Of a stretch of DNA of 64,000 nt, positions 48,201 through 64,000 are shown one piece after another. Source of the DNA: Acutalibacteraceae bacterium (GTDB lineage Bacteria > Bacillota > Clostridia > Oscillospirales > Acutalibacteraceae); the NCBI GenBank assembly GCA_045639785.1, contig JAZUDT010000002.1:4121-68120 (forward strand). The letters run 5' to 3'. Positions within the stretch are counted from its first letter, which is position 1. Each line of letters begins with the position of its first letter. The notes below the pieces were generated by a model. It saw nothing but the letters and a program-made list of their open reading frames with translations. It ran no database searches and was not told where the DNA came from. Both the position numbers and the translations under genes were made by a program.

Positions 48201-48214
48201 AGGGGGTGTCATAA

Positions 48215-50401: not shown

Positions 50402-50527
50402 GAGTTAGAAATTAGGAGAGAGGAGTGAGGAGTTATCCGAGCAAGAATATATTTCCATAAAAAGTGATTGCGAAGAAATAAAAAAGATGCTGTCATCTTC
50501 CACAAAAACATTAAAGGACGAATTGAA

Positions 50528-51040
50528 ATGAAAACTTCTTACTTCTCCAACCTCACTCCTAACGCTCTGAAAGAGCAAATCTACCGTGATTTTTACGGCA
50601 AGGTCTACGGTTACATACTGTCGAAAATTCAGAATGTGCAGAATGCGGAGGACCTGACGTCGAATGTTTTTCTCAAGGTATATGAAAAGCTCGACACGTT
50701 TGACGACAGCAAGGCCTCTCTTTCCACATGGATTTACACCATAACAAGAAACACGCTGACGGATTTTTACCGCACGAGAAAGGTTTTTGACGAAATACCC
50801 GAAAACCAGGAGAGCGGCTTTTCTCTTGAAGATGAGGTATGCAATGCTCAGACGCTTGAAATGCTGGCACAGGCACTTGAAACGCTTGACGAGCGGGAAC
50901 GGGATATTGTTATTTTCCGCTACTACTCGGGCAAAACGCTCAGGGATATTTCGGAGCAGATGAATATTTCGTATGCATACGTTAAGGTGCTTCAGAATAA
51001 AGCGTTGGCAAAATTGAGAAAATTTTTGGAAAATCAGTAG
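50528..51040 (+). CDS. ECF-like sigma-70 family RNA polymerase sigma factor
   Basis: Region 2 is AEDLTSNVFLKVYEKLDTFDDSKASLSTWIYTITRNTLTDFYR and region 4 is ERERDIVIFRYYSGKTLRDISEQMNISYAYVKVLQNKALAKLR. The start MKTSYF at 50528 follows AAGGA. Confidence 0.85.
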   Translation: MKTSYFSNLTPNALKEQIYRDFYGKVYGYILSKIQNVQNAEDLTSNVFLKVYEKLDTFDDSKASLSTWIYTITRNTLTDFYRTRKVFDEIPENQESGFSLEDEVCNAQTLEMLAQALETLDERERDIVIFRYYSGKTLRDISEQMNISYAYVKVLQNKALAKLRKFLENQ

Positions 51041-51066
51041 CCGCTTTTTAAATTTCATCGTATAAA
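51028..51066 (+). promoter_or_regulatory. conserved promoter/5'UTR module, copy 1 (overlaps sigma gene stop)
   Basis: ggaaaatcagtagccgctttttaaatttcatcgtataaa. It shares GAAAAATCAGTAGCC-N-CTTTT-N-AAA-N3-CATCGTATAAA with copies 2 and 3. An RBS and ATG of peptide gene a follow about 30 nt downstream. Confidence 0.55.
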
Positions 51067-51095
51067 CAGATGAAAGGGGCAAGGAGGTAACAAAA

Positions 51096-51275
51096 ATGGA
51101 AAAGAAATTTGAACTTAATGATAAAGAGCTTGAAAAAGTCAGCGGCGGACCCGAAGAACGCACGGTGCTCGGCTTGAAGGCTTCATCGGATTGCAGAAAA
51201 TGCGAATGCGGGCAGATTATTGAAGATGACGGCCTTGCGTTCTGCCCGTTTTGCGGAAGCAAAATAAGCGATTGA
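51096..51275 (+). CDS. double-glycine-leader peptide a (zinc-ribbon-like core)
   Basis: Not in the ORF track because it is only 59 aa. The sequence is MEKKFELNDKELEKVSGG / PEERTVLGLKASSDCRKCECGQIIEDDGLAFCPFCGSKISD. The RBS AAGGAGG lies 8 nt upstream. Confidence 0.7.
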   Translation: MEKKFELNDKELEKVSGGPEERTVLGLKASSDCRKCECGQIIEDDGLAFCPFCGSKISD

Positions 51276-51283
51276 TAAAAACA

Positions 51284-51323
51284 GAAAAATCAGTAGCCAC
51301 TTTTTAAAAAGCATCGTATAAAT
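51284..51323 (+). promoter_or_regulatory. conserved promoter/5'UTR module, copy 2
   Basis: gaaaaatcagtagccactttttaaaaagcatcgtataaa, followed by AAGGAGG and ATG 51353. Confidence 0.55.
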
Positions 51324-51352
51324 ATATGCAACGAGGTAAGGAGGCAATAAAA

Positions 51353-51610
51353 ATGGAAAGAAAACTTAATGCAATTTTTGATTATCAGAATTTTGAAAAA
51401 AATCCCCGTCTTGAAAAGCTTATTTCGGAAACCGAGAACCGGTATGCGAGGGAGCTTTCAGATGACGATCTCACTTTTGTCAATGCGGCTGGCGATTTCA
51501 ACATGAGCGGCGGACTTATAAGCGAAAATGAAATTTCTGAAAAAAACAGCACTCCGACATCGTCCGCTGTATTTGGTAAATCAGTCAATGTCAATGAAGT
51601 GCTTACCTAA
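51353..51610 (+). CDS. small hydrophilic protein b (possible long-leader peptide or regulator)
   Basis: 85 aa: MERKLNAIFDYQNFEKNPRLEKLISETENRYARELSDDDLTFVNAAGDFNMSGG / LISENEISEKNSTPTSSAVFGKSVNVNEVLT. The RBS AAGGAGG lies 7 nt upstream. It has no TM segment. Confidence 0.55.
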   Translation: MERKLNAIFDYQNFEKNPRLEKLISETENRYARELSDDDLTFVNAAGDFNMSGGLISENEISEKNSTPTSSAVFGKSVNVNEVLT

Positions 51611-51660
51611 GCCTGAAAATTGAATGAATAATAATTAAACTGAAAGAGGTGGATTCTGAA

Positions 51661-51900
51661 ATGAAAACAAAAGAAGAACTGAATGAGCTCAAAAAAGAAT
51701 ACGAAAACGTAAAAAGCAAGCTTTCCGAGCTTAGTGAATACGAGCTTAAAGAGGTCACGGGCGGCTATCATTGCGGGATCAATGCGAACTCCGGCACAAT
51801 GATTCATGCACCGACCTTCGGAGCGGTTGCAGATACGGCTCCATACATTGATACAGGATTATCTTCAGATGTTAACAATAAAGAAATAAAGGTCGATTAA
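51661..51900 (+). CDS. double-glycine-leader peptide c
   Basis: 79 aa: MKTKEELNELKKEYENVKSKLSELSEYELKEVTGG / YHCGINANSGTMIHAPTFGAVADTAPYIDTGLSSDVNNKEIKVD. RBS AGAGGTGG. Confidence 0.75.
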   Translation: MKTKEELNELKKEYENVKSKLSELSEYELKEVTGGYHCGINANSGTMIHAPTFGAVADTAPYIDTGLSSDVNNKEIKVD

Positions 51901-51926
51901 ATTATATTATAGGAGGAGATTTAACC

Positions 51927-52097
51927 ATGAAAACTAAAGAAGAACTGAACGAACTCAAAAAAGAATACGAAAACGTAAAAAGCAAGCTTTCCGAGCTTAG
52001 CGAAGACGAGCTTAAAGAAGTCGTCGGCGGAGTCGGAGGCGATCCGATTGACATCGAAGTATATACCAACTGGGAAATTCTACCCACAATACAGTAA
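51927..52097 (+). CDS. double-glycine-leader peptide d
   Basis: Not in the ORF track (56 aa). The sequence is MKTKEELNELKKEYENVKSKLSELSEDELKEVVGG / VGGDPIDIEVYTNWEILPTIQ. RBS AGGAGGAG. The leader is 33/35 identical to peptide c. Confidence 0.75.
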   Translation: MKTKEELNELKKEYENVKSKLSELSEDELKEVVGGVGGDPIDIEVYTNWEILPTIQ

Positions 52098-52135
52098 CGG
52101 ATTTGACAGTAAAAACTAAAAAGGAGGAATTTCTC

Positions 52136-52318
52136 ATGGAAAACGAAAAGAATAAAAAATCAATATCCGATGAAGAGCTTGGAGATGTCACCGGCGGCGG
52201 TATCCTCGACAAGCTCACGACAGGAACGCAAGTTAATTCCTCTAAAGATGACCCCGACGGTTATCAGATAAGCGAAAGACTGCGTGTTCTGATTAGACCG
52301 GGTGATACTGCTGAATAG
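52136..52318 (+). CDS. double-glycine-leader peptide e
   Basis: 60 aa: MENEKNKKSISDEELGDVTGG / GILDKLTTGTQVNSSKDDPDGYQISERLRVLIRPGDTAE. The RBS AAGGAGGA lies 7 nt upstream. Confidence 0.75.
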   Translation: MENEKNKKSISDEELGDVTGGGILDKLTTGTQVNSSKDDPDGYQISERLRVLIRPGDTAE

Positions 52319-52380
52319 CTTGCTGATAAATACTCAGAAAAAATTTGGAATAAGAGTAATAAAAAATGCCAACGATATCC

Positions 52381-52420
52381 GGAAAAATCAGTAGCCCTTT
52401 TGAAAAAAGCATCGTATAAA
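52381..52420 (+). promoter_or_regulatory. conserved promoter/5'UTR module, copy 3
   Basis: ggaaaaatcagtagcccttttgaaaaaagcatcgtataaa, followed by AAGGAG and ATG 52452. Confidence 0.55.
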
Positions 52421-52451
52421 ATAATGAAAGAAAACAAAAGGAGCAATCATT

Positions 52452-52616
52452 ATGAAACTTGATGAAAACGAAAGCAAGAAGCAAGCAGAAATTAACGGAG
52501 ATGTACTTACGGAAGTCACGGGCGGTAAGGAAGATTTAACAATCAAGCCCAATGACGGAGAATTCTGGCATTCGTGGAATCCGGCATTTATCATTTCAGA
52601 CGAATCCATCAAATGA
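52452..52616 (+). CDS. double-glycine-leader peptide f
   Basis: Not in the ORF track (54 aa). The sequence is MKLDENESKKQAEINGDVLTEVTGG / KEDLTIKPNDGEFWHSWNPAFIISDESIK. RBS AAGGAG. Confidence 0.7.
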   Translation: MKLDENESKKQAEINGDVLTEVTGGKEDLTIKPNDGEFWHSWNPAFIISDESIK

Positions 52617-52684
52617 ATCAAGATAATATTTAACAAAAAATCAACCGATAACAGGTATGCAAAACACAGAAAGGAAAAATCAGA

Positions 52685-52879
52685 ATGGAAAACGAAAAGA
52701 ATATTAAAGCAATATCCGAAGAAGATCTTAAAAATGTCACCGGCGGCAAAGAAAATATCAATTCTGAGGAACTTTGGTTTGAGGGTACAGATGTTGACAG
52801 GATTGCCATGCTAAATTCCGGTCCCGCAAACGGAGTCACTCCGATAATTTTTACCGCCACAGTGAATGGGGATAAGTAA
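52685..52879 (+). CDS. double-glycine-leader peptide g
   Basis: 64 aa: MENEKNIKAISEEDLKNVTGG / KENINSEELWFEGTDVDRIAMLNSGPANGVTPIIFTATVNGDK. The leader is paralogous to peptide e. Confidence 0.7.
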   Translation: MENEKNIKAISEEDLKNVTGGKENINSEELWFEGTDVDRIAMLNSGPANGVTPIIFTATVNGDK

Positions 52880-52915
52880 ATTATCGTTTTGTTTTGAAAA
52901 GCAAGTAAAAATCAG

Positions 52916-52952
52916 AAAAACGCTTGAAACCTTTGCGTTTCAAGCGTTTTTT
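52916..52952. terminator. bidirectional terminator shared by the peptide operon and the recombinase gene
   Basis: aaaaacgcttgaaac / gtttcaagcgttttt form an 11-bp core stem extended by A/T tracts. The recombinase stop codon (52940-52942) lies in the right arm. Confidence 0.75.
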
Positions 52953-54427
52953 GATTTTGGTGCACCGAAATCGGTGAAATCCGAACCTTTTTCTGCCGCT
53001 TCAATTTCGGCAAAGGTTATTGTTTTTGAACCGTCTTTGAAATTAAAAGTGATTACCATTTTGTCATCGTCAAGATAAATTGCGTTGATAAATGTATCAA
53101 TCAGCTTGCGGCGATGTTCAAGTTTCTCTATGTTAAGCTTTCTCAATCTGTGGAACCAAAACAGTATCTGTTCTCTTGTAAGAACCGGTTTTGACATTTC
53201 TTCTTTCATTATCTGAACCGAAAGTTCGCCTTTTTGCTGTTCAAGTTCTTCAAGTCTTTGTTTGGTTGACGGTGTAATTATGCCTTGCTCTATTGCGTTC
53301 AGCATATTATTTATAGCTTTTTCAGTCTCTGAATACCGTTTTTGAAGTATCGGTAAAACCTTGTTTTCAGAACCTAATTTTTCTAAAGCCATATCGGCAA
53401 GGCGTTCAATCAGATCATCATCAAGAATGATTTTTTGTATCTGTTCAAGGACTAAATTCTCTATCCAATCCTTTTTTACGGTCTTTTTATTACATCCACG
53501 GTGTTCTTTTACGCTGACACATTTATAGTATCTGTGAACCTCACCTGTATGACTTGTACCGCTTTCGCCAACCATAAAGCATTTACATTTTGCACAGTAA
53601 AGTTTAGTTGTCAACAGATATTCATCTTCGGCTTTATGTTTAGCCGGAGCTTTTTTATTTAATGCCATTCGCTCCTGTACTCTGTCAAACATTTCTTGGG
53701 TTACAATAGCGGGAATACCTCCGGGGATAACAACATCCTTGTATTTATATTCGCCTATGTACTTACGGTTATGAAGCATACTTGTAACATTATCCGTATC
53801 AAGCTTGCCGTTATGCCGCTGTGTTCTGACACCTCTGATATTCAATTCATCGGCTATCTGCTGCATACCCATTCCGTTTGCATACATCTCAAAAGCGTCC
53901 GCAACGGCAGGCGAAGTTATGGGATCAAGCTGATAATGTTTATCGCTGTCAATTACATATCCGATAGGGAGCGTACCGCCGTTATACTTGCATTTAAGGG
54001 CATTTTCTTTCATTCCACGGTTTACTTTTTCGGCAAGTTCAACGGAATAATATTCTGCCATACCCTCAAGCATTGTTTCAAGAAGCACGCCTTCTGAGCC
54101 TTTTGAAATGGCTTCGGTTGCAGAAACAACCTTAACGCCGTTCTTTTTTAATGCCGCTTTATAGTGTGCAGAATCAAAACGATTACGAGCAAATCTGTCA
54201 AGCTTCCAAACTATAACAACATCGAAATTTTTTCTGCTGCTGTCTTTAATCATCCTTTGAAAATCAGGTCTTTTATCGGTTTTTGCAGAAAATGCACGGT
54301 CGATATATATATCAACTATATTGATGCAGTTCCGTTCGGCAAATTCCTTGCACTCACGAATCTGACCTTCAATAGATTCTTCACGCTGACTGTCCGAAGA
54401 ATATCTTGCATAAATTACACCGTTCAT
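52940..54427 (-). CDS. large serine recombinase (resolvase/invertase catalytic domain + recombinase + zinc-ribbon domains)
   Basis: MNGVIYARYSSDSQREESIEGQ carries the catalytic Ser motif. Also present are VIVWKLDRFARN and the Cys-rich CAKCKCFMVG...YYKCVSVKEHRGC zinc ribbon. The start at 54427 is the first Met before the conserved N-terminus. Confidence 0.9.
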   Translation of the reverse strand: MNGVIYARYSSDSQREESIEGQIRECKEFAERNCINIVDIYIDRAFSAKTDKRPDFQRMIKDSSRKNFDVVIVWKLDRFARNRFDSAHYKAALKKNGVKVVSATEAISKGSEGVLLETMLEGMAEYYSVELAEKVNRGMKENALKCKYNGGTLPIGYVIDSDKHYQLDPITSPAVADAFEMYANGMGMQQIADELNIRGVRTQRHNGKLDTDNVTSMLHNRKYIGEYKYKDVVIPGGIPAIVTQEMFDRVQERMALNKKAPAKHKAEDEYLLTTKLYCAKCKCFMVGESGTSHTGEVHRYYKCVSVKEHRGCNKKTVKKDWIENLVLEQIQKIILDDDLIERLADMALEKLGSENKVLPILQKRYSETEKAINNMLNAIEQGIITPSTKQRLEELEQQKGELSVQIMKEEMSKPVLTREQILFWFHRLRKLNIEKLEHRRKLIDTFINAIYLDDDKMVITFNFKDGSKTITFAEIEAAEKGSDFTDFGAPKSKNA

Positions 54428-54532
54428 TTTCTCACTGTCCTTTCTGCCGGGTTTCAGGGCTGTCCCTGACAAGTGCCGTGCATATGCAACGGCGATGCTT
54501 GATAAGACAATGTCCATTGGATTTCAAGCATC

Positions 54533-54573
54533 CAAGCGAATTTGTGCTATCACAATTCATTGCTTGATAAGAC
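54533..54573 (+). repeat. inverted repeat, left copy (caagcgaatt-N11-aattcattgcttgataagac)
   Basis: The reverse complement occurs at 62035-62074 (20/20 and 10/10 matches around a 10-11 nt non-conserved spacer). The local partner gttgtcttgaaagcaatg (54581-54597) can also pair with it. Confidence 0.8.
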
Positions 54574-54613
54574 AACCCCGTTGTCTTGAAAGCAATGTAA
54601 AATTGGGAGGACA

Positions 54614-54639
54614 AATTCATTGCTTGATGATACGATACC
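54614..54639 (+). repeat. third copy of the repeat core (aattcattgcttgat-gatacgatacc)
   Basis: It is a direct repeat of 54554-54568. Its 3' part (gatacgatacc) resembles the extension of the right copy (aagacgatacc). A shorter partial copy, gatgcttgataagacaa, is at 54494-54510. Confidence 0.7.
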
Positions 54640-54795
54640 GCTTACAAATGGAGTATATCATATCCTAAAAGAAAAGTCTATAATAAAATCTATATTTTCA
54701 AAATAAAATTGATTTTTTCAATTTTATTGTTGCTTATTTATTAAGCTTGTGATATACTTAAAACTGTTGAATTATATCCATAGGAGGGCTGCGCT

Positions 54796-55005
54796 TTGGC
54801 TCGCTCATACAATAAACTTTGGAAACTGATGATTGATAAAAAGATGAATAAAACACAACTCCGTGAAGCCTCAAAAATCACTACTAATGCAATGGCTAAA
54901 CTTGCAAAAGATGAATCAGTACCCCTTGAAACTCTTGAAAAGATTTGTGCCGTTTTGCATTGCAATATTGAGGATATTGTAGAAGTTACTTATGAAGAAA
55001 ACTAA
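54796..55005 (+). CDS. XRE-family HTH regulator (possible R-M controller protein)
   Basis: 69 aa with a TTG start 7 nt after TAGGAGGG. The HTH is MNKTQLREASKITTNAMAKLAKDESVPLETLEKICAVLHCNIEDIVEV. It is the first gene of the co-directional cassette. Confidence 0.75.
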   Translation: MARSYNKLWKLMIDKKMNKTQLREASKITTNAMAKLAKDESVPLETLEKICAVLHCNIEDIVEVTYEEN

Positions 55006-55107
55006 AACTTATCTTCATTATATTGAAAGAAATGTCCGTTAATATGGACTTTATATTTGTTATAATAGTCGATAGATGTACTGCTGTCTTTAGAGAGGTT
55101 CATGTTT

Positions 55108-56121
55108 ATGCCTTATCAAATTTGGAACAGAAGATATACAGGAAGCAAATATAAAATTGCTGAATGGATACACGGTTTAATATCTGAAAATTGTATTGGA
55201 ACATCTTTTTGTGATATTTTTGCCGGTACTGCAATTATCAGTAAACATGCATTAGATAATTATGAAGAAGTATATATAAATGATTTTCTCTATTCAAACG
55301 AAATAATATATAAAGCGTTTTTTGAACAAAATTATTATGATATAGAGAAACTAAATAAATTATGCAAGCAATTCAATTCAGTAGATTGTTCAAATATTCC
55401 TGATAACTATATATCTCTTAATTTCGGAAACAAATATTTTTCCTACTCAGATGCTCTTTTAATCGGTTATATTCGTGATCGAATCGAAAAAGAAGAACTA
55501 ACCGAAAAAGAAAAAAATATTCTGCTTGCTTCATTACTTTATTCGGCAGATAAATCTGCAAATACAGTCGGTCACTATGATGCCTATATTAAAGGAAAAG
55601 CAATCCCCGATACTTTTAAATTTGATTTAATTGTACCTTATAAATACAAAAACAAAAAGATACATATAACACGTAAAGATGCCAATGAATTAGCAAAGGA
55701 AATTCAAACAGATATTGTATATATCGATCCACCATACAATTCAAGACAATACAGTAGATTTTATCATGTGCTCGAAAACATAGCTTGTTGGAATAAGCCC
55801 GATTTGTTTGGCGAGGCTTGTAAGCCTATTCCCGAAAACATGAGTGAGTATTGTCGAAATGCAGCAACAGCAGTGTTTGAAGATCTTATAAATTCACTCA
55901 AATGCAAGTATATTGTTGTTTCGTATAATAACACATACAATTCAAAAAGCAGTTCATCTAAAAATAAAATAACATTAGAAGATATTGAAAGAATACTTGC
56001 AAAAAGAGGGAAAGTTTCAATTTATGAAAAACCGTTTCAATACTTTAATGCAGGAAAAACAGATTTGAAAGATCATAAGGAACTAATATTTATAGTGGAA
56101 GTTGGTAAAGAAAATGATTGA
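55108..56121 (+). CDS. D12-class N6-adenine DNA methyltransferase (M1)
   Basis: RRYTGSKYKIAEWI N-terminus, motif I-like FCDIFAGTAIIS, catalytic DPPYNSRQY. An alternative ATG is at 55102. Confidence 0.8.
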   Translation: MPYQIWNRRYTGSKYKIAEWIHGLISENCIGTSFCDIFAGTAIISKHALDNYEEVYINDFLYSNEIIYKAFFEQNYYDIEKLNKLCKQFNSVDCSNIPDNYISLNFGNKYFSYSDALLIGYIRDRIEKEELTEKEKNILLASLLYSADKSANTVGHYDAYIKGKAIPDTFKFDLIVPYKYKNKKIHITRKDANELAKEIQTDIVYIDPPYNSRQYSRFYHVLENIACWNKPDLFGEACKPIPENMSEYCRNAATAVFEDLINSLKCKYIVVSYNNTYNSKSSSSKNKITLEDIERILAKRGKVSIYEKPFQYFNAGKTDLKDHKELIFIVEVGKEND

Positions 56122-57022
56122 AAGAAGTGAATGCAGACGTTCTCCATTCTTTTATGTTGGAGATAAATTCAAGCTCGTTCCTCAACTAAAAGAAAATTTT
56201 CCGAAAGATATTGACCGCTTTATTGAACCCTTTTGTGGTGGCGGAAGCGTTTTTTTGAATACTGAAGCAAACCAATATTTGCTGAACGATATTGATTCAT
56301 ATATGATCAAGCTGCATCAGTTTTTAATCTCTGCAAGCGAGAACACAGAGCAGTTTTGGAGTGAACTGAAGTTTGATATAGATAAGTATAGGCTTTCTGC
56401 AACATTTCTCGGAAAAGATGTTCCCTCGGAATACAGAAAAGAATTTGTGAAGACATATTTTGCCAAATACAATAAAGAATCATATATGAAAATGAGAGCA
56501 GATTTCAACGATGGTAAAGATGATATGATGCTTCTTTATATGCTTTTAATCTATGGCTTCAACAGAATGTTAAGATTTAATCGTAAAGGAGACTTTAATC
56601 TTCCGGTAGGAAATGTTGACTTCAATCAGAATGTTGTTGATGCACTGAATTCATATTTTGATTATGTGAATGATAGAGATATTGAATTGTTCAATATGGA
56701 TTTTCAGGACTTCATCGAGAAAGTTCAGCCGACTCCCAATGATATGGTTTATTTAGATCCGCCGTATTTAATTACTTTCAGCGAATATAACAAATTGTGG
56801 AATGAAGATAGTGAAATGCGACTAATTGACTATTTGGATGAGCTTGATGCTCGTGGTGTTCGATTTGCCGTTTCGAATGTTTTATGGCACAGAAAGAGAT
56901 ATAACGGCACATTTAATGCATGGGCACAAAAATATAATATTGTGCGCATACAGAGCAATTACATAAGCTATCATGACAACTCAGAAAAAGACTCATACGA
57001 AGTATTGGTGAAAAACTATTAA
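56114..57022 (+). CDS. D12-class (Dam-like) N6-adenine DNA methyltransferase (M2)
   Basis: FFYVGDKFKLVPQL, EPFCGGGSVFLN (motif I) and DPPYLITFSEYN (motif IV). The ATG at 56114 overlaps the M1 stop (ATGATTGA). Confidence 0.85.
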   Translation: MIERSECRRSPFFYVGDKFKLVPQLKENFPKDIDRFIEPFCGGGSVFLNTEANQYLLNDIDSYMIKLHQFLISASENTEQFWSELKFDIDKYRLSATFLGKDVPSEYRKEFVKTYFAKYNKESYMKMRADFNDGKDDMMLLYMLLIYGFNRMLRFNRKGDFNLPVGNVDFNQNVVDALNSYFDYVNDRDIELFNMDFQDFIEKVQPTPNDMVYLDPPYLITFSEYNKLWNEDSEMRLIDYLDELDARGVRFAVSNVLWHRKRYNGTFNAWAQKYNIVRIQSNYISYHDNSEKDSYEVLVKNY

Positions 57023-57035
57023 GGATGTGAGATTT

Positions 57036-58610
57036 ATGCCAAGAGAAAGAGCTGCTGAATATAAGCCATTATCATTTTCAACAACAATGAGAAATCCTGC
57101 AAGAATAGCAGGGTTCCTGAACTGCATTATTCCTTTTGAAGGACAGCTATTAACCAATGATATTATTATGAACGTTGCAAAAACGCTTATAAAGAAAAAA
57201 TTATATATCCCGATGTATGTAACTCGGATTCCTAATTTGAAAGCGGTATTAAATGATGAAAGAGAATTTACTGATTCGGAAGTAATCGAAATAATTGACC
57301 ATAGCCCGCAAAATCATAAAGAAGCAGGATTTGAAAAAGGTTGGCCTTCAAGATTTGACACTTGGTATAAATTGGCTATGGAATTTGGTTTTGTATTTTA
57401 TCAAATAGATTCTCCGATTGTTATTTCAACAACGGGGCATATGTTAGTTGATGCATTTAATGAAAATCCTATTAATGATGAGAAAATAAAAAATGTTTTC
57501 CTTAATGCATTAATGAAATATCAAACCAACAATCCGTTTAGAAAAAATGCCAACGCCAATTCACCTTTGGTTCTTTTATTAAAAGTGATAAAACTATTAA
57601 AAAATGATCCCGAAGAGAATGATGCAGGTGTTTTCAGAAATGAGCTGTCTTTATTGATTTGTTGGAGAGATAATGATGCGGATGCTCTGTATCATAAAAT
57701 TAAAGAACTGCGTCAACTTCATCAATTTACATACGGTGATGAGGTTATTTATGAAATCTGTCTTGATCTTCTTGGAGCTGCCGAAGAACAAAAGAACAGG
57801 TTTAAAATCAATCAAATTACCGGCGAGGCGGTTGATGAATTCATCAGAAAAATGCGTATAACAGGTATTGTTTCTTTAAGAGGAAATGGCCGTTTTATAG
57901 ATTTTAACTCCTTTGAATCCGATAAAATACAGTATATTTTAGATAACTATTCGGATTATGAAACATACGATGATAAAAACGCTTATTTCCAATATATGGG
58001 TACTATTGACACAGACATTGTATCAATGGTTCAGCCTATAAATGAGGAAGCGGTTAATGATGCCCGAATTTCAACACTAAATCAATGGGCAAATGAATAC
58101 TCAAAAGAAGATATAATAAACGAATTGAATATTGTTTGCAGAAACAGAGAAAGTAGAAATCCTGTTTTAAGAATTATTGATAAACCTACTCGTTTGGAAT
58201 TTTTAACGAGTATAGCATTAAAACAGCATTTTGACACTTTAGTTGTAAAACCCAATTATCATGTTGACGATGAAGGTTTGCCAACTTTTACCGCATCAGG
58301 TGGTATGGCGGACATTGAGTGCTTTGATACAGATTGCAATCCGCTTGTAGAAGTTACTCTTATGTGTGCGAGGAATCAGGCAACAAATGAAATGCCCGCT
58401 ATTACCCGACATTTGCAGGAAGCAATCGAAAAATATCCGACAGTAACGGTATTCTCTATCCTTGTGGCACCGTCTATTCATGCAGATACAAAATATATGG
58501 CTGAGTTCTCTAAATTCAGATATAATGTTGATGTTTTGACTTTTACAAACGAAGAATTTATTGAACAAATAAGTTGTAAAGATAGGATTATTGAAATGTT
58601 AAATTACTGA
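57036..58610 (+). CDS. type II restriction endonuclease, AlwI-family-like (probably type IIS)
   Basis: 525 aa immediately after two methyltransferases. The N-terminal LSFSTTMRNPARIAGFL resembles what I recall of the RE_AlwI family N-terminus. A C-terminal PD-(D/E)xK-like block is present (ADIECFD...VEVTLM). Confidence 0.55.
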   Translation: MPRERAAEYKPLSFSTTMRNPARIAGFLNCIIPFEGQLLTNDIIMNVAKTLIKKKLYIPMYVTRIPNLKAVLNDEREFTDSEVIEIIDHSPQNHKEAGFEKGWPSRFDTWYKLAMEFGFVFYQIDSPIVISTTGHMLVDAFNENPINDEKIKNVFLNALMKYQTNNPFRKNANANSPLVLLLKVIKLLKNDPEENDAGVFRNELSLLICWRDNDADALYHKIKELRQLHQFTYGDEVIYEICLDLLGAAEEQKNRFKINQITGEAVDEFIRKMRITGIVSLRGNGRFIDFNSFESDKIQYILDNYSDYETYDDKNAYFQYMGTIDTDIVSMVQPINEEAVNDARISTLNQWANEYSKEDIINELNIVCRNRESRNPVLRIIDKPTRLEFLTSIALKQHFDTLVVKPNYHVDDEGLPTFTASGGMADIECFDTDCNPLVEVTLMCARNQATNEMPAITRHLQEAIEKYPTVTVFSILVAPSIHADTKYMAEFSKFRYNVDVLTFTNEEFIEQISCKDRIIEMLNY

Positions 58611-58690
58611 TTAACTGTATGTAAAATATGGCCTAATCTGAATGAATTGTCCTTTATCGAATCCACAATAAAACCGATGGAGTGATGAAA

Positions 58691-60043
58691 ATGAATAATA
58701 ATTTGTACGGAAAATTAGAATACAATAATGAAAAATACCCTTTCTATTTAGAGGATAGAATAGTTCGTATTATTGGAGAACCTTTTCAATACAATAACGA
58801 TTTCAAAAATGCGGATGAGATTGAAATAATAAGGGGTATCACCTCTGGGAATAAAGATATTATATTTTTGCGTTGCAAATTCATAAAAAAGAGTTTTAAA
58901 TTTATCGAATTTTCTATTGAAGGTTACGCAATTTCCAAAAGTGATATGGGAGTCCCTTGCGATTTTACATATACCAGTAGTTCGTTTGAATCGGATGCAA
59001 TAGACACGTTTTTTTCACCGCAAAAAGCCGTCAACTTCGATGAGGGCATAAATGATGAAACAGGAGAAATTTCAATTAAAATATCTCCGTTTAAAGCTAC
59101 TTCTATTGGGTTTGATTATTTAGATTCAAAATGTCAGTTTAGTATTTCTCGTTATGTACGAATTCATAGAGATCCCACAAGTATCGGACAAGTAAAATCA
59201 GTATTTACATTTGAACATTCACAAGTTCAATCCATAACAAAAGTAATTGATGATTATTGTGCTATATATGATTTTTTGTCATTTGTAAACTATAGTACAA
59301 ATATTCCATTCAAAAAAATAATTATCGGTAAAAAGAATGATGATGGATGTTTTGAAAATACTGCCATAGTGCACTTTTTTATTGATAAATCAGAGTATGA
59401 AAATACGGATTTTAATACGATTACCATAGATGATATACCTCAAGAAAAGCTTTGTGATATTTTTTCATGCATTGCATCGCTTAGAAATAAAGATAAACGG
59501 TTGCGATTTTACTTTCCTGAAAACAATCAAGAAAGGCGATATATTGATCCGGGTAAATGGCTTATTGCAGCATTAAATTTCGAAGGATTGTTTACAGAAA
59601 CATATCCTGGTTTTAAATGCAATATGACACCTTCATTTAATAATGCAAAACAGCTTGCTTTAGAGAGAATAGACAATACATCAGACGGTAAATCCTTATC
59701 AAAAAATGAGCAAAAGCATTATCAAAATTGTCGAAGGCAAATTGAACGTTACGAAGGACAATTAGAAGAAAAATTCAATTATGTCCTCAAGAATAACAAA
59801 GATGTTGTAGCACAAATTTTACAATATAATGAAAAACATCTTAGTACAAAGTTATCAGAGAATTATGGAAAAATATTTGCCGATTACCGTAATAAAATTG
59901 CACACGGCTCTGTCGAACCAATAGCAGATAAACAAGTGGCAGCATATCGTCTTTTGCGTCCATTCATTTATCTTTTGATTTTATCGAAAATAGATTTAAC
60001 ACCTAATGAAAAGAAAAAAGTCATTGCAAAATTATTTGAGTAA
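58691..60043 (+). CDS. ApeA-like abortive-infection candidate with C-terminal HEPN domain
   Basis: The C-terminal FADYRNKIAHGS contains the HEPN R-x4-H motif. The N-terminal YGKLEYNNEKYPFYLEDRIVRIIG resembles ApeA N-terminal domains. The start at 58691 lies 8 nt after GGAG. Confidence 0.5.
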   Translation: MNNNLYGKLEYNNEKYPFYLEDRIVRIIGEPFQYNNDFKNADEIEIIRGITSGNKDIIFLRCKFIKKSFKFIEFSIEGYAISKSDMGVPCDFTYTSSSFESDAIDTFFSPQKAVNFDEGINDETGEISIKISPFKATSIGFDYLDSKCQFSISRYVRIHRDPTSIGQVKSVFTFEHSQVQSITKVIDDYCAIYDFLSFVNYSTNIPFKKIIIGKKNDDGCFENTAIVHFFIDKSEYENTDFNTITIDDIPQEKLCDIFSCIASLRNKDKRLRFYFPENNQERRYIDPGKWLIAALNFEGLFTETYPGFKCNMTPSFNNAKQLALERIDNTSDGKSLSKNEQKHYQNCRRQIERYEGQLEEKFNYVLKNNKDVVAQILQYNEKHLSTKLSENYGKIFADYRNKIAHGSVEPIADKQVAAYRLLRPFIYLLILSKIDLTPNEKKKVIAKLFE

Positions 60044-60156
60044 AATTATGGCATAACAACCGATAGGATGATTAATGCACGAGCATATAAGATTTTATGA
60101 CTCGTCTAAGGATGAAATTGCTCTTGTTGTAAAATCGATTAAGTAAAGGAGAAGAA

Positions 60157-61248
60157 ATGAGCAAGCCTAAGAAAATACAAATCCCTGGCAAAAACTATTT
60201 TGCTTGGAAATACGAAGAACAAACAAAGGTAAAGCATAAAGTTTTAGGTTCTTATGCTAAGATTTGGATATCAAAACTTGGTTATAAATGCAATACTCTA
60301 TTTTTTGATTGCCACGGCGGATGTGGCGCGTATATTGATGAGGAAGCCTCGGTTTCATATGGCTCATCAATATTAGTAAAGCAATTAGCCGATAAAATCA
60401 GCGAAAAGCGTTCGACAAAGACAGGAGTATATTACTGCGAAAAAGATAAAGGTACTTATGATAACTTTATTAACATAAAAAATGAATTGAACAACATAAA
60501 AATCAATACATATAACGATTCGTTTGAAAATATAATTGCAAAACCTGATGTTTCAAAGTACTACAATAAATATCCAACCCTTTTTCTTGTTGATCCTTTT
60601 GGTTACAATTTTGATATTAACGAATTATCTGTAATGATGAAGGGTTTCGGAAATGAAGTAATAGTAAATTTCATGTTTGATTTTATAACTCGTTTCATTT
60701 CAAAAAATGAGCTTAAAGATTCTTTAAATCGTTTCTTCGGATCTAACGAATGGGAAAATGCTATTAATTTAACAGGAAGAGAACGAGAAACATTCTTAGT
60801 AAATATTTTCAAAAACAAAATCAAAGAGGTAACAGGTGCAAAATTTGTTTTTCCATATCGGTTATGCTATCCCGATAAGGATCAAACATATTATTATTTG
60901 ATACACGCAACTAATCATATTGACGGAATTACTTTGATGAAAGATGCATTTGCAAGCATTAATAATGGCAGGGTACAGTATTTAGGTAGGCATAATAACG
61001 ATATTTCTATCTTTGATATGGACTGTATTAAAGCGGATGATATATACAACTCGTATATGAAAAATAGAAAAGGCGAAAGTTTTTCAGTTGATGATTTTTG
61101 GGTTGGCATTGTTGAAGAAACCGCCTATACAAGAAAAGATTTAAGCAGTATATTAAATGAATTAGTAAACACTGGGAAAATAGTGATTGATAGAATTTCA
61201 TCAAAACGTGGTTCATATCGGGAAAAAGATATAATCACGATTATATAG
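60157..61248 (+). CDS. three-Cys-motif partner protein TcmP-like
   Basis: WKYEEQTKVKHKVLGSYAKIW...LFFDCHGGCGAYIDE...YGSSILV matches my recollection of the TcmP family N-terminal signature (W..HT..K...L..Y; D.FAG.G.Y; GS). It is adjacent to a three-Cys protein. Confidence 0.6.
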   Translation: MSKPKKIQIPGKNYFAWKYEEQTKVKHKVLGSYAKIWISKLGYKCNTLFFDCHGGCGAYIDEEASVSYGSSILVKQLADKISEKRSTKTGVYYCEKDKGTYDNFINIKNELNNIKINTYNDSFENIIAKPDVSKYYNKYPTLFLVDPFGYNFDINELSVMMKGFGNEVIVNFMFDFITRFISKNELKDSLNRFFGSNEWENAINLTGRERETFLVNIFKNKIKEVTGAKFVFPYRLCYPDKDQTYYYLIHATNHIDGITLMKDAFASINNGRVQYLGRHNNDISIFDMDCIKADDIYNSYMKNRKGESFSVDDFWVGIVEETAYTRKDLSSILNELVNTGKIVIDRISSKRGSYREKDIITII

Positions 61249-61258
61249 AGGGCGTAAT

Positions 61259-62017
61259 ATGAAAACAATCAACAGGCAATCTATGCTTTATAAAACCGGT
61301 GTAGAGTATGGAGATTATACGTTAAACCATGTGCAAGGTTGTGCACACGGTTGCAAATATCCTTGCTATGCTATGCAGATGGCAAAACGTTTTGGAAAAG
61401 TCAAAACATACGAAGAATGGTGTGAACCGAAACTTGCCGAAAACACATTAGAAATACTTGATAAAGAACTCCCGAAACTTAAAAATAAGATTGAATCGGT
61501 GCATCTTTGTTTTACTACTGATCCGTTTATGTATGGATATGATGAAGTTAAAAAAATGAGTATCGAGATTCTAAAAAAGATTAATTCGTATGATATAAAA
61601 TGCACGGTTCTGACAAAAGGCATATTACCTTTTGAGCTTGCCAGCTTAACAAAAGAAAACGAATATGGGATTACTTTGGTATCTTTGGATGAAGATTTTC
61701 ACATAAAATATGAGCCAAATACAGCTCCTATGAATGATAGAATTGAAGCTTTAAAAGCTCTGCATAATGCAGGGTGCAAAACATGGGTAAGCATAGAACC
61801 ATATCCCACACCGAATATTATTGAGCAAGATCTTAAAGCAATTTTAGACTCTATCAGTTTTGTTGATAAAATCATTTTCGGACGGATGCACTATAATAAG
61901 TTAATCAGTGAATACAAAGAGCATAAATCTTTTTTCAACAAATGTGCCGATTCAGTTATTAAGTATTGTACTGAAAATGGAATCGCATATCACATAAAAA
62001 ATGGTACAATGACTTGA
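61259..62017 (+). CDS. radical-SAM-like three-Cys-motif (C-x3-C-x3-C) protein, related to COG1533/SPL-like DNA-acting enzymes
   Basis: YTLNHVQGCAHGCKYPCYAM lies near the N-terminus. At 252 aa it is compatible with a partial TIM barrel. The gap after the TcmP-like gene is 10 nt. Confidence 0.6.
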   Translation: MKTINRQSMLYKTGVEYGDYTLNHVQGCAHGCKYPCYAMQMAKRFGKVKTYEEWCEPKLAENTLEILDKELPKLKNKIESVHLCFTTDPFMYGYDEVKKMSIEILKKINSYDIKCTVLTKGILPFELASLTKENEYGITLVSLDEDFHIKYEPNTAPMNDRIEALKALHNAGCKTWVSIEPYPTPNIIEQDLKAILDSISFVDKIIFGRMHYNKLISEYKEHKSFFNKCADSVIKYCTENGIAYHIKNGTMT

Positions 62018-62034
62018 TACATTAGCATGGTATC

Positions 62035-62074
62035 GTCTTATCAAGCAATGAATTAGGTGTACCTAATTCGCTTG
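62035..62074 (-). repeat. inverted repeat, right copy
   Basis: gtcttatcaagcaatgaatt-N10-aattcgcttg is the reverse complement of the left copy at 54533-54573. It lies 18 nt after the stop of the three-Cys gene. Confidence 0.8.
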
Positions 62075-62170
62075 TTAGGTCGCAGGTCTCCGGTGGAGAC
62101 CTCTGCCGAAGGCAGAAGCGATGTCTGAGGCGGCAGCCGAGTATTCTAAAACCCGTCCCAAAGGAGTGAT
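62075..62170. other. GC-rich structured segment of unknown function
   Basis: It contains perfect hairpins aggtctcc-ggtg-ggagacct and ctgcc-gaa-ggcag (UUCG loop when read on the minus strand). It is embedded in AT-rich DNA, and no convincing ORF spans it. Confidence 0.4.
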
Positions 62171-62178
62171 GTGTAAAA

Positions 62179-62574
62179 ATGAAAAGTTCAATATTAAAAG
62201 AGCGAGCTGCTTTTGCTTTAAATATGATTTTGTCAGCAGACAAAGTTGATTATCGTTCTTTAGAGCGTTCCCGTTTGTGCTTTTACATACAGGATTATCA
62301 TAACGATATTGAAAAAGAAGTTGCACTTGCTCTTGTTTCAGAATGGGAAGAAATCAAAAATTATGATAAGTTATCTTTTTTCAAAAGGCTTCTTGTCCGT
62401 TTACGATTTACTTGGAAAAACACAAAAGCGGAATTGGTCTTATCCGATGAAATAGTCGAGTCAATAGTTGATTTAATGCTGCCGGATATTATCTCATTCT
62501 TTGAATCAGAAGAAGGTAAGAAAGAGTTTGAGGAGTGGAAAGCGGAGAGGAAAAAGCATTCTGAGAAAATGTAA
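62179..62574 (+). CDS. hypothetical protein
   Basis: 131-aa ORF with RBS AAAGGAG. Its C-terminal EGKKEFEEWKAERKK tail recurs as a remnant at 63636-63698. Confidence 0.5.
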   Translation: MKSSILKERAAFALNMILSADKVDYRSLERSRLCFYIQDYHNDIEKEVALALVSEWEEIKNYDKLSFFKRLLVRLRFTWKNTKAELVLSDEIVESIVDLMLPDIISFFESEEGKKEFEEWKAERKKHSEKM

Positions 62575-62595
62575 AAAATGATTTAAGGAGGAACT

Positions 62596-63051
62596 ATGGG
62601 ATTATTAAATTTGGCAAGTAGTGCCTCTGCTTGGCGAGGGTATGATTATTATAAAAAAGGGGCGGTAATAACAAAACTCAAAATATCGGATACTGAGTAT
62701 TCGGGATGTGTTAATGGGAATAGCCATGCATCTTATGATGTGTTTATTGATTTAGAGCATCCGAGAAAGTCACATTGCAACTGTCCGTATGCAAACGGAA
62801 AAAGAATCATTTGCAAGCATCAAATTGCCTTGTTCTTTTCGGCATTCCCGGATGAAGCCGAAAAGTATTACAAAGAAGTGTTGGAATATGAAGAACAAGC
62901 AGAGAGGGAAGCGGAAGAACTATACGACAAAGTTGCGGATTACATATTTAAGATGAAAAAATCAGAAGCACAGCAGGTTCTATATGAGATCTTGTTTGAT
63001 GGTCCGGAATGGCAATTTGACAGGTTTGTCAGCGAACATTGGATCGAATGA
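62596..63051 (+). CDS. SWIM zinc-finger protein
   Basis: HCNCPYANGKRIICKHQIALFF fits the SWIM C-x-C-xn-C-x-H signature. RBS AAGGAGG. Confidence 0.7.
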   Translation: MGLLNLASSASAWRGYDYYKKGAVITKLKISDTEYSGCVNGNSHASYDVFIDLEHPRKSHCNCPYANGKRIICKHQIALFFSAFPDEAEKYYKEVLEYEEQAEREAEELYDKVADYIFKMKKSEAQQVLYEILFDGPEWQFDRFVSEHWIE

Positions 63052-63153
63052 TTTGTATGATTGAATTATTTTGCTGCGTTGAAGTTTGTAATTGAAAAGG
63101 AATATTAATATTTTTTGGATGCTCAGACGAAATATTAAAAGGAATAGATAAAA

Positions 63154-63630
63154 ATGGAAAATAAATATAGTATTTTAAAAAATATAATTGAACAGGCAAT
63201 AGAATCATTTAACGAAAAAGAAGAATATCTTATAAAAAACGATCTCAGCGAACGATGTATATGTTCAAGATTTGCTACATATATTACCACAGCATTGCAA
63301 GTTACTGAATTCCATGATTATGTTGCTGATGTGGAATATAATCGTGGAGCTATGGGTAAGGAAAATGGAATAAAGAAAATGGATAATAACCCAATTACGG
63401 TTGATCTAATTGTTCATAAAAGAGGATATGATATTTGGAGCGGATTCATAAATCTGATATGTATTGAAATGAAAAAATCTACAGATAGACGTGGTTGTGC
63501 TGATGATGAAGAACGATTGCGAAAAATGTGTAGTTATGAATATAAATTTTCCTATTCAGCAGGTTTTATGATTTTAATAAATAAAAAAGAAAATCGATTA
63601 GAAATAAAGAGAGAGTTTTGTTTGAGTTAA
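63154..63630 (+). CDS. hypothetical protein, possible PD-(D/E)xK nuclease fold
   Basis: VDLIVHKRG...NLICIEMKK gives a D ... E-x-K arrangement with about 20-aa spacing. Support is weak and motif-level only. Confidence 0.3.
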   Translation: MENKYSILKNIIEQAIESFNEKEEYLIKNDLSERCICSRFATYITTALQVTEFHDYVADVEYNRGAMGKENGIKKMDNNPITVDLIVHKRGYDIWSGFINLICIEMKKSTDRRGCADDEERLRKMCSYEYKFSYSAGFMILINKKENRLEIKREFCLS

Positions 63631-63635
63631 TAATA

Positions 63636-63698
63636 GGCAAAAAGGAATTTGAGGAGTGGAAAGAGAAACAAGCCGAAAAACAAAATGTGGATGTTTAA
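63636..63698 (+). pseudogene. 3' remnant of a paralogue of the 62179-62574 gene
   Basis: It reads GKKEFEEWKEKQAEKQNVDV*. The first 28 nt match 62515-62542 at 24/28 positions. No upstream ORF continues the frame. Confidence 0.5.
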
Positions 63699-63871: not shown

Positions 63872-64000
63872 TTAATTATAAATCAGTTCAGCGTTAACGA
63901 TTTCCGTTGCACGGTTGCGGATATTATTCATCTTCTGCACCCACAGCATCTGATTTTCAGCTTTGAGTTGTTCGGTTATACCCTCGGATTTTGCCATATC
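63872..64000 (-). CDS. tnpV: TnpV-like transposon protein, C-terminal fragment (5' end outside window)
   Basis: The minus-strand frame reads ...MAKSEGITEQLKAENQMLWVQKMNNIRNRATEIVNAELIYN*. This resembles the conserved C-terminus of TnpV proteins of Tn4451-type clostridial elements. Confidence 0.6.
   Translation of the reverse strand, partial: DMAKSEGITEQLKAENQMLWVQKMNNIRNRATEIVNAELIYN

Follow-up and report, generated by a model that had tools for sequence, protein, structure and literature searches.

Arrays of a covarying hairpin unit at the edges of an exchangeable defence cassette in a small integrative element of Acutalibacteraceae

What is the role of an inverted repeat that brackets a set of defence genes directly beside a recombinase gene? 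The question is raised by a stretch of 64,000 nucleotides from an Acutalibacteraceae bacterium (GenBank assembly GCA_045639785.1, contig JAZUDT010000002.1, positions 4,121 to 68,120), which is called the window throughout. It contains a gene for a large serine recombinase (LSR; 52940-54427, minus strand), a cassette of restriction-modification and other genes beside it, and imperfect inverted repeats of about 40 bp at the two ends of this cassette. Beyond the distal repeat there is a gene for a 131-aa protein, here called o62179 (62179-62574, plus strand). A reading made from the sequence alone had proposed that the repeats are sites at which the recombinase inverts the cassette, the P and P' arms of attL and attR of a nested element, or the terminal inverted repeats of an inserted cassette. 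We favour a different explanation and hold it with about even confidence, i.e. that the repeats are units of structured junction or leader modules which also anchor the exchange of cargo.

The bracketing repeat as a folded unit

The left repeat, caagcgaatt-tgtgctatcac-aattcattgcttgataagac, can be read directly in the window at 54533-54573, and the right repeat, at 62035-62074, is its reverse complement around a spacer of 10 nt (aggtacacct). A repeat search of the window recovered the inverted arm with 20 of 20 matches, as well as a 26-nt inverted arm (92%) that pairs 54614-54639 with 62029-62054. The 20-mer has three matches at three or fewer mismatches in the 64-kb window, where shuffled sequences are expected to give 0.01, and none of 100 shuffles reached three, which rules out a chance repeat. 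The inverted repeats described by the sequence-only reading are thus real, coordinates included. A genome-wide repeat of the REP or MITE kind was also rejected, as no further full units occur elsewhere in the 64-kb window and an exact-match scan of 185,579 species genomes (one genome per species) found the 20-mer at only 14 loci. The outer flanks of the bracket, gcatc and ttagg, are not direct repeats.

A scan for the tail motif showed that the sequence flanking the repeat is a further copy of the same unit, and that the cassette edges carry one to three units. In each unit CAAGY is followed by the 5' inner arm, the loop, the 3' inner arm, a bulge of 3 nt (ATT or GAT), GCTTG and, last, the tail ATAAGAC(G/A)ATACC. 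The left array is preceded by a leader hairpin, gggtttCAGGGctgtCCCTGa (54449-54469, plus strand), which is of the gggtttYAGGG-N-CCCTRA type, folds, and lies between the ribosome-binding site of the LSR gene and the first unit. It is followed by unit U1 (CAAGTGCC-gtgcatatgcaac-GGCGATGCTTG-ATAAGAC; 54470-54508, plus strand; DNA fold -7.3 kcal/mol, z -2.4), by a linker (54509-54532, plus strand) that gives rise to a further hairpin in the fold through pairing of its 3' part, ggatttcaagcatc, with the tail of U1, and by unit U2, i.e. the left repeat itself (CAAGCGAATT-tgtgctatcac-AATTCATTGCTTG-ATAAGAC; 54533-54573, plus strand; z of the DNA fold -3.05). Folded together, 54449-54580 forms four consecutive hairpins (z -5.2). 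Further towards the cargo lie an inverted remnant of a unit tail, recognised by reading the sequence (gtcttgaaagcaatg; 54583-54597, minus strand), and the 3' half and tail extension of a third unit (AATTCATTGCTTGATGATAC-GATACCGC; 54614-54641, plus strand), recovered by the repeat search and the tail-motif scan. The distal unit (62029-62074, minus strand; DNA fold -8.4 kcal/mol, z -6.0) is the right repeat with a GATACC tail extension, and its tail is directed towards the cargo.

The extra copies that had been noticed next to the left repeat (54494-54510, 54581-54597 and 54614-54639) all exist, and all left copies lie between the start of the recombinase gene (54427) and a gene for an XRE-family regulator (54796). 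The copy at 54494-54510 had been called partial; it is actually the 3' half and tail of the full unit at 54470-54508. The right copy does stand just past the last cassette gene, at a distance of 17 nt from the stop codon (62017). We note that within 54558-54597 the U2 tail opposes a degenerate inverted tail 9 nt away, and that the same arrangement is seen at about 5890-5945 of a related locus, L009. Such a scar could have been left behind when a cassette collapsed or was lost.

The outer stem of 5 bp (CAAGY/GCTTG), the 3-nt bulge and a variable inner stem of about 8 bp are common to 51 instances, which represent 27 distinct units. When 25 distinct units were aligned in register, 94.2% of the cells were paired, and compensatory changes on both sides were found in 8 of the 13 pairs, GAATT/AATTC, GCCTT/AAGGC, GTATT/AATAC and GTGTT/AACAC among them. 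The observed pairing and covariation was reached in none of 500 shuffles, and controls with slid partners paired in 34-39%. Single-strand folds gave z values of -2.4 to -6.0 for the units and of about -5 for the arrays. The units are thus selected to fold, as RNA or as single-stranded or cruciform DNA, because the duplex operator of a dimeric protein would not change its sequence and yet keep its complementarity.

Rfam gave three sub-threshold chance matches only, none of them at the units. The plasmid and phage collections contained no match to 54440-54660, the 20-mer was not matched in IMG/VR, and no unit-like element was seen in Rfam, in the plasmid or phage collections or in the literature found. 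As a clean case of a hairpin with covarying stems, in which bulge and tail are conserved, the unit belongs to no curated family of RNA or DNA.

Cargo turnover between conserved edges

Related loci, numbered L001 onwards, were collected by the 20-mer scan, through proteins homologous to the LSR and o62179, and by an LSR-based scan of metagenome contigs. All but one of the 14 loci with the 20-mer are in metagenome-assembled genomes (MAGs) of Acutalibacteraceae, Oscillospiraceae and other Clostridia, and in 13 related loci the 20-mer brackets other cargo. L003 was rejected as a unit locus, the match there being a chance one inside an open reading frame (ORF). The shared architecture consists of, in this order, the LSR gene reading outwards, a leader, a unit array, a bay of variable cargo that may begin with the XRE gene, a second unit array, a leader, o62179 reading outwards, a second variable spot, TnpV and tRNA-Leu. 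At least 12 different defence cargos lie between the repeats in related loci. The cargos of the bay comprise AlwI restriction-modification alone or with other genes, GmrSD, an OLD-like ATPase, HNH/DUF4869/AAA, a DUF234-Mrr ATPase with flavin reductase and dCTP deaminase, a KAP NTPase, AAA_5, SLFN/AEP-DEAD-PLD, SIR2, HinfI restriction-modification, a sigma-factor-like protein and DUF4236/TPR. That the same repeat might flank different cargo in related genomes had been raised by the sequence-only reading, and a search for such cases found them. The repeats also delimit a discrete cassette, as had been supposed, and this cassette is exchangeable.

The backbone that surrounds the cargo is tiny, because nothing is shared by L017 and L021 other than TnpV, o91 and the distal array, followed by the proximal flank with the LSR. 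In a sister clade, at 70% LSR identity, the architecture is kept and the repeats have co-diverged (tail GTGCTTGCTGAGAC), and relatives of the LSR at 55-60% identity have no comparable bracket within 10 kb. L007 follows L010, as is evident from the split AlwI gene, and therefore has the architecture of the window.

A direct view of exchange is offered by L104 and L105, which come from different samples. The two loci share 6,490 bp at 99.95% identity, counted from the outer end of the distal-unit tail, and their cargo is unrelated: XRE, AlwI restriction-modification and a 227-aa protein in L104, flavin reductase and dCTP deaminase in L105. Their three mismatches all fall within the terminal distal unit. 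L105 is identical to L001 (100%) through the end of the cargo and the distal unit, and the identity decays further out in the backbone. So cargo and distal unit appear to have been swapped as one block, because those of L105 match L001 at 100% while the backbone diverges. If the donor was L001-like, the swap junction lies just outside the unit, within TGCTTGAAAT. The proximal terminal unit (loop tgtgatatcca) is common to three cargo types. The units are the edges of the exchange unit, and a homologous as well as a site-specific route fits this pattern.

One MAG has three unit-bearing contigs (L001, L006 and L009) and another has two (L005 and L011). Single MAGs hold two LSR elements with different cargo and in addition an element with RepA_N, RHH and ParB genes, all of them unit-bearing, and therefore partners for cargo exchange co-reside. 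In L011 (positions 1-140), the DUF234 ATPase cargo gene is fused at its 3' end directly to a 132-bp remnant of the LSR 3' end, and the joint has microhomology. Either the LSR and the proximal array were lost in a deletion, or the joint is an assembly chimera.

The orientation of the arrays is uniform, i.e. the tail is towards the cargo in every array examined. The CAAG end adjoins the leader hairpin, which is found in nearly all arrays, and the ribosome-binding site of the outward gene. At the proximal edge this gene is the LSR, except in L010, where a 371-aa ORF stands before the LSR; at the distal edge it is o62179. In L002, L004, L006 and L103, where no LSR was seen, the outward gene is an RHH(NikA-like)-ParB operon beside a RepA_N gene. 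The hairpin-rich leader of o62179 in the window was located by sequence comparison and folding (62075-62178, plus strand), and its part 62082-62141 precedes the LSR instead in L009, L011, L095 and L098. Leaders are thus interchangeable between the LSR and o62179. The inverted arrangement consists of two diverging backbone genes, each with the same upstream module. In other words, the repeats are inverted because the backbone genes diverge and each array is fused to its outward gene.

A promoter-like site (TAGACT-17-TG-TATACT; 54652-54680, minus strand) lies inside the bracket and is aimed through the units at the LSR gene; its AGTATA box is kept in XRE-type loci. In most loci the final gene of the cargo is directed across the distal array and into o62179. 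Since a promoter-like site is directed through the units on one side and a cargo gene reads through the array on the other, the arrays are most likely transcribed leaders.

Attachment sites of the recombinase and competing explanations

The homology of the window to L008, L010 and L011 starts at 52956-52958, in the last codons of the LSR gene, where the sequence is T(T)GGTGCACC-gaaatcggtg-AAATCCGAACC. The opposite end in the relatives reads AATCCGAACC..GGTTCGGATT-attcgagtt/TGGTGC and abuts the 3' end of tRNA-Leu. Insertion at this 3' end is found in six loci from both clades. The reconstructed attP has symmetric arms, GGTTCGGATT and AATCCGAACC, around the core GCACCAA; symmetric arms around a core are expected for the attP of an LSR. 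According to the homology start and the comparison of junctions, the left end of the element in the window is the core TTGGTGC at 52957-52963 (the reverse complement of GCACCAA, the tRNA-Leu 3' end). It is followed by the inner att arm gaaatcggtgAAATCCGAACC and lies within the 3' end of the LSR gene. There are no tRNA genes in the window, and the attachment of the window copy to tRNA-Leu is presumed from the relatives because the right end of the element is beyond 64000. The att core falls within the last LSR codons (52940-52990 in the window, 2500-2660 in L014, 7200-7345 in L008 and 6842-7045 in L021), and therefore integration rewrites the C-terminal tail of the recombinase. Serine integrases normally insert within genes (PMC5704250), and an LSR that inserts at a tRNA 3' end and has the att core in its own gene is unusual among them.

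The arms AATCCGAACC and GGTTCGGATT are not found in the units, which carry CAAGY/GCTTGATAAGAC instead. Left spacers are 11 nt long (tgtgctatcac or tgtgatatcca) and right spacers 10 nt (aggtacacct, aggtgcacct or tggatatcca), the sister clade has tgctgtagca versus tggatagcca, and no central crossover dinucleotide is common to left and right units. In no locus does the bracket enclose the LSR gene. An empty platform or a circular junction was not seen among about 30 loci, in a search that was not exhaustive. The idea that the spacer of the bracket is the attP core was rejected, as the likeness to GGTGCACC is confined to the clade of the window and the sister clade has cgctGCACCAA. The repeats are probably not the neighbouring LSR's own sites. 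The proposal that they are the P and P' arms of attL and attR of a nested element is not supported, since the att sites of the LSR are elsewhere and have different arms, the LSR is outside the bracket, and the loops differ.

Several other explanations have to be weighed against these observations. The cassette could be a nested non-autonomous element moved by the LSR in trans, similar to the Ccr/SCC system, with the repeats as attL/attR-like hybrids that have a short half-site outside and a long half inside. The LSR gene is indeed always adjacent, the asymmetry of the short and long halves mimics B-type and P-type half-sites, and in some loci of the window clade the distal spacer aGGTGCACCt with its GAATT/AATTCG flanks agrees with the attP core GAGTT-TGGTGCACC-GAAATCG at 17 of 21 positions. 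We nevertheless consider this quite unlikely: the spacer likeness is lost in the sister clade, the att arms are missing from the units, the left and right loops differ consistently in length and in their centres, units are also present in contigs where no LSR was seen, and stem covariation is unexpected for a duplex site of one protein. Moreover, the short half should be part of the platform that did not change, yet this is where the polymorphisms between L104 and L105 lie. The differing loops and missing arms count equally against phase-variable inversion, in which the LSR would flip the bay, so that the internal promoter would serve o62179 in place of the LSR or the defence genes would be turned on and off. 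This is very unlikely, even though the inverted repeats adjoin a serine recombinase gene, the promoter-like site inside the bracket points outward, and L102 has its XRE module at the distal and not at the LSR end. The AlwI cassette has one orientation in five to six assemblies (window, L005, L013/L106, L104 and L010+L007), and so has the DUF234/dCTP-deaminase cassette in six (L001, L011, L012, L014, L099 and L105). All other brackets behave likewise with their tails inward, and L102 consists of two regulator-led modules that each read inward. The suggested role as recombinase sites for cassette inversion is therefore not upheld, given one orientation only in about 12 independent assemblies with two cassette types and in all other brackets. 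It is possible, if unlikely, that the cassette has a folded, structure-recognised site of its own, similar to an integron attC, with which it enters, leaves or is exchanged at a platform next to the LSR, either through the LSR in a non-canonical mode or through a factor supplied in trans. The short conserved outer boxes, the extrahelical bulge and the variable complementary inner stem are as expected, the distal unit moves with the cargo in the L104/L105 pair, the proximal terminal unit recurs with three cargo types, and the tail-to-tail scar, the hybrid-looking loops among units and the several unit-bearing elements of one MAG (L001, L006, L009) point the same way. On the other side, no element has a tyrosine or HUH enzyme, the LSR being the sole recombinase, there are edge arrays only and no cassette arrays with units between modules, and cargo also varies internally without units, e.g. 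downstream of the AlwI module. The two sites are inverted and not direct, the support comes from one near-isogenic pair, and the failure to find an empty platform or circular junction, within the limits of that search, counts here too. A capture of cassettes in gut Clostridia that is analogous to integrons, works without a tyrosine integrase and uses a platform beside an LSR is, by our estimate, rather unlikely.

In the classical transfer origin (oriT) a hairpin precedes a conserved single-strand tail, and the layout of the unit fits, with an inverted repeat followed by a conserved tail that is a candidate nick region. The unit could then be a transfer origin that is recognised in trans by the relaxase of a co-resident conjugative element, which would make the present element mobilisable. 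It stands upstream of an RHH (NikA-like) gene in L002, L004, L006 and L103, TnpV is present as in the mobilisable Tn4451 family while the Mob gene is missing, and the wobble bias described below is strand-specific. We hold this to be improbable, however, since the RHH gene is followed by ParB with no relaxase in the neighbouring genes of these short contigs, the NikA-like matches are near the cut-off, the plasmid and phage collections gave no match, and inverted and tandem copies are not expected of an oriT; it would also not explain why the units are invariably joined to the leaders and ribosome-binding sites of genes that are unrelated. A duplex-DNA operator for the XRE protein, or for another regulator of both outward genes, would agree with near-palindromic units between the divergent LSR and XRE genes, and the distal copy could co-regulate o62179. 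Yet the units are intact in bays without XRE (L001, L012 and L099) and in other elements, and their inner arms change sequence while they stay complementary, unlike a protein half-site. Such an operator is very unlikely, and the doubt that the sequence-only reading had expressed about a purely regulatory role for the XRE protein agrees with the presence of units in loci without XRE and with the conservation of pairing and not of sequence. The proposal of transposon terminal inverted repeats is not supported, as the bracket encloses defence genes and no transposase, and no target-site duplication is present outside it.

We thus return to the structured junction or leader modules. According to this explanation the arrays, in the 5' leaders of the LSR and o62179, would fold in RNA or in transiently single-stranded DNA, and the folded arrays would buffer or gate the expression of the backbone genes against transcription from the changing cargo. 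They may also act as recombination anchors for swapping cargo between co-resident elements, because they are the sole conserved sequence at the bay edges; the swap would proceed by homologous recombination or by a further site-specific activity. A number of observations weigh against this explanation. The junction interval in the L104/L105 swap is 10 nt if the donor was L001-like, which is tighter than plain homologous recombination predicts. The promoter-like site is a consensus match from a scan and hence a candidate promoter. The hairpins are without U-tracts and thus not canonical terminators, and no intrinsic terminators were predicted in 61800-62300 or at the units in 52800-55100. In a hairpin that served for stability or insulation alone, the conserved tail of 15-20 nt and the conserved bulge would be superfluous, and this pattern suggests a sequence-specific protein partner. 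Finally, on the strand that reads into the bay there are 19 cells with G.T wobbles versus 2 with A.C, so that the bias favours folding of the bay-directed strand and not of the strand of the outward mRNA. This is a hint that single-stranded DNA or antisense RNA may suit the data better than a simple leader, and it is weakened by the fact that about two thirds of the G.T cells may trace to one ancestral change through the shared ancestry of U1-type units.

The element, its genes and known systems

The leftmost 11 kb of a small integrative element lie in the window, its right end being beyond 64000, and the backbone of the element is the LSR, which reads left, o62179, which reads right, and TnpV. 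Defence hotspots such as those of P4/P2, SXT integrative conjugative elements and pipolins (PMC11551731) likewise combine a small integrative element, a conserved core and a variable defence bay, with exchange between co-resident elements. In contrast to these, the bay edges are here marked by arrays of one covarying-hairpin unit with a conserved tail, and the distal unit appears to move with the cargo. SCC/SCCmec islands and their Ccr recombinases (PMC11470126) also have an LSR, defence cargo bracketed beside the recombinase, and non-autonomous modules. The SCC modules are bounded by the att sites of their own recombinase in direct, functional orientation, whereas the att site of the present LSR is elsewhere (tRNA-Leu) and its arms are not shared. 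The likeness to integron attC sites includes the folded site, outer boxes, extrahelical bases and a variable complementary inner stem, as well as the position at the cargo 3' end, from where the site travels along, and a platform beside a divergent recombinase gene; but there is no tyrosine integrase, there are no multi-cassette arrays, the sites are inverted and the motifs are others; recombination at the units is putative.

The Tn4451/Tn4453 family (TnpX LSR and TnpV; PMC5704250) is likewise one of small clostridial elements with an LSR, TnpV and cargo. The LSR gene of Tn4451 reads inward from one end, its target specificity is low, it has 2-bp (GA) repeats and it carries a Mob/oriT module (PMC5704250). 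The present element differs in its target, the tRNA-Leu 3' end (six loci, two clades), in the att core inside the LSR 3' end and in the absence of a Mob gene. REP-type hairpins and structured leaders are similar as stable hairpins without U-tracts between co-transcribed genes and upstream of ribosome-binding sites. REP elements are genome-wide, however, while the present units are confined to mobile elements, and the conservation of their bulge and tail points to a specific partner. If the architecture holds, there is a compact, tRNA-Leu-specific family of defence elements (LSR, o62179, TnpV) in uncultured gut Clostridia, and its bay edges carry a sequence tag with which defence systems could be mined between two inward-facing tails. 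If the units prove to be recombination sites, they would represent a new route of cassette exchange in Firmicutes.

The LSR (52940-54427, minus strand) has 495 aa from an internal ATG, its last codons are host-derived, and it matches the Pfam families Resolvase, Recombinase and Zn_ribbon_recom. The closest curated family is CcrB, with a score under its cut-off. A protein search gave more than 7,700 homologues of 489-646 aa, and an exact-sequence look-up of the LSR returned no record. The first gene of the bay encodes an XRE-family (HTH_26) regulator according to Pfam (54796-55005, plus strand). This protein is 97-98% identical among L008, L009 and L010 even though their cargo differs, and by this comparison the XRE gene behaves as semi-conserved backbone in most relatives. 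The cargo itself, all on the plus strand, begins with an AlwI-type (type IIS) restriction-modification system that was identified by profile searches and has two D12-class adenine methyltransferases and an endonuclease (55102-58610). Next is a 453-aa protein (58682-60043) with a weak Pfam match to HEPN_MAE_28990 (E 0.0085, under the cut-off) and without a PADLOC or NCBIfam match. Profile searches assigned the remaining two genes to TcmP (TIGR04474; 60157-61248) and to its radical-SAM/DUF5131 partner, the last gene of the cassette (61259-62017). This pair resembles the candidate defence pair PDC-M30.

The backbone protein o62179 is without a known family. PHROGs, Pfam and a PDB fold search gave nothing for it, and its AlphaFold2 model is all-helical (pLDDT 85). 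Within the o62179 family the C-terminal motif LPDII-FFESEEGKKEFEEWK is invariant, and members occur near LSR genes throughout the LSR family. Some loci (L022 and L087) have an o62179 homologue directly upstream of the LSR and in the same direction. The protein is a candidate recombinase partner or directionality factor.

The second variable spot (62546-63635, plus strand) was recognised by comparison with relatives and is inserted in the 3' end of o62179. Profile searches found in it genes for a SWIM protein (62596-63051, plus strand) and a PD-Lambda-3_A-like protein (63154-63630, plus strand). In L014, L001 and L005, position 62546 is joined straight to 63635, i.e. the second spot is empty. 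A displaced copy of the o62179 C-terminal coding sequence (KEFEEWKEKQAEKQNVDV) is left at 63636-63698, and the spot is occupied in relatives by a GmrSD-HNH gene, an HD-domain gene or nothing. The C-terminal end of the TnpV gene (63875-64000, minus strand) runs off the window; it is 95% identical to the TnpV of L014, which itself matches PF14198.

On its left the element adjoins a bacteriocin-type locus (46029-52879), in which profile searches found two bacteriocin-type (C39-peptidase) ABC exporters (46029-50401) and which continues with small ORFs (51326-52879), one of them with a weak lactococcin-like match. The G+C content is about 46% up to 50 kb, 38% around the LSR and about 31% in the cassette, and it falls from 45% to 39% at about 51 kb.

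Finally, two more distant relatives of the LSR (57% identity) have a different hairpin of 27 bp about 500 bp upstream of the LSR gene (L054, 9408-9485; L085, 9438-9515). The two hairpins differ by compensatory changes (CCCCCTCCCCC versus GGGCGCACCCCC), and structured elements upstream of such recombinase genes may be general.

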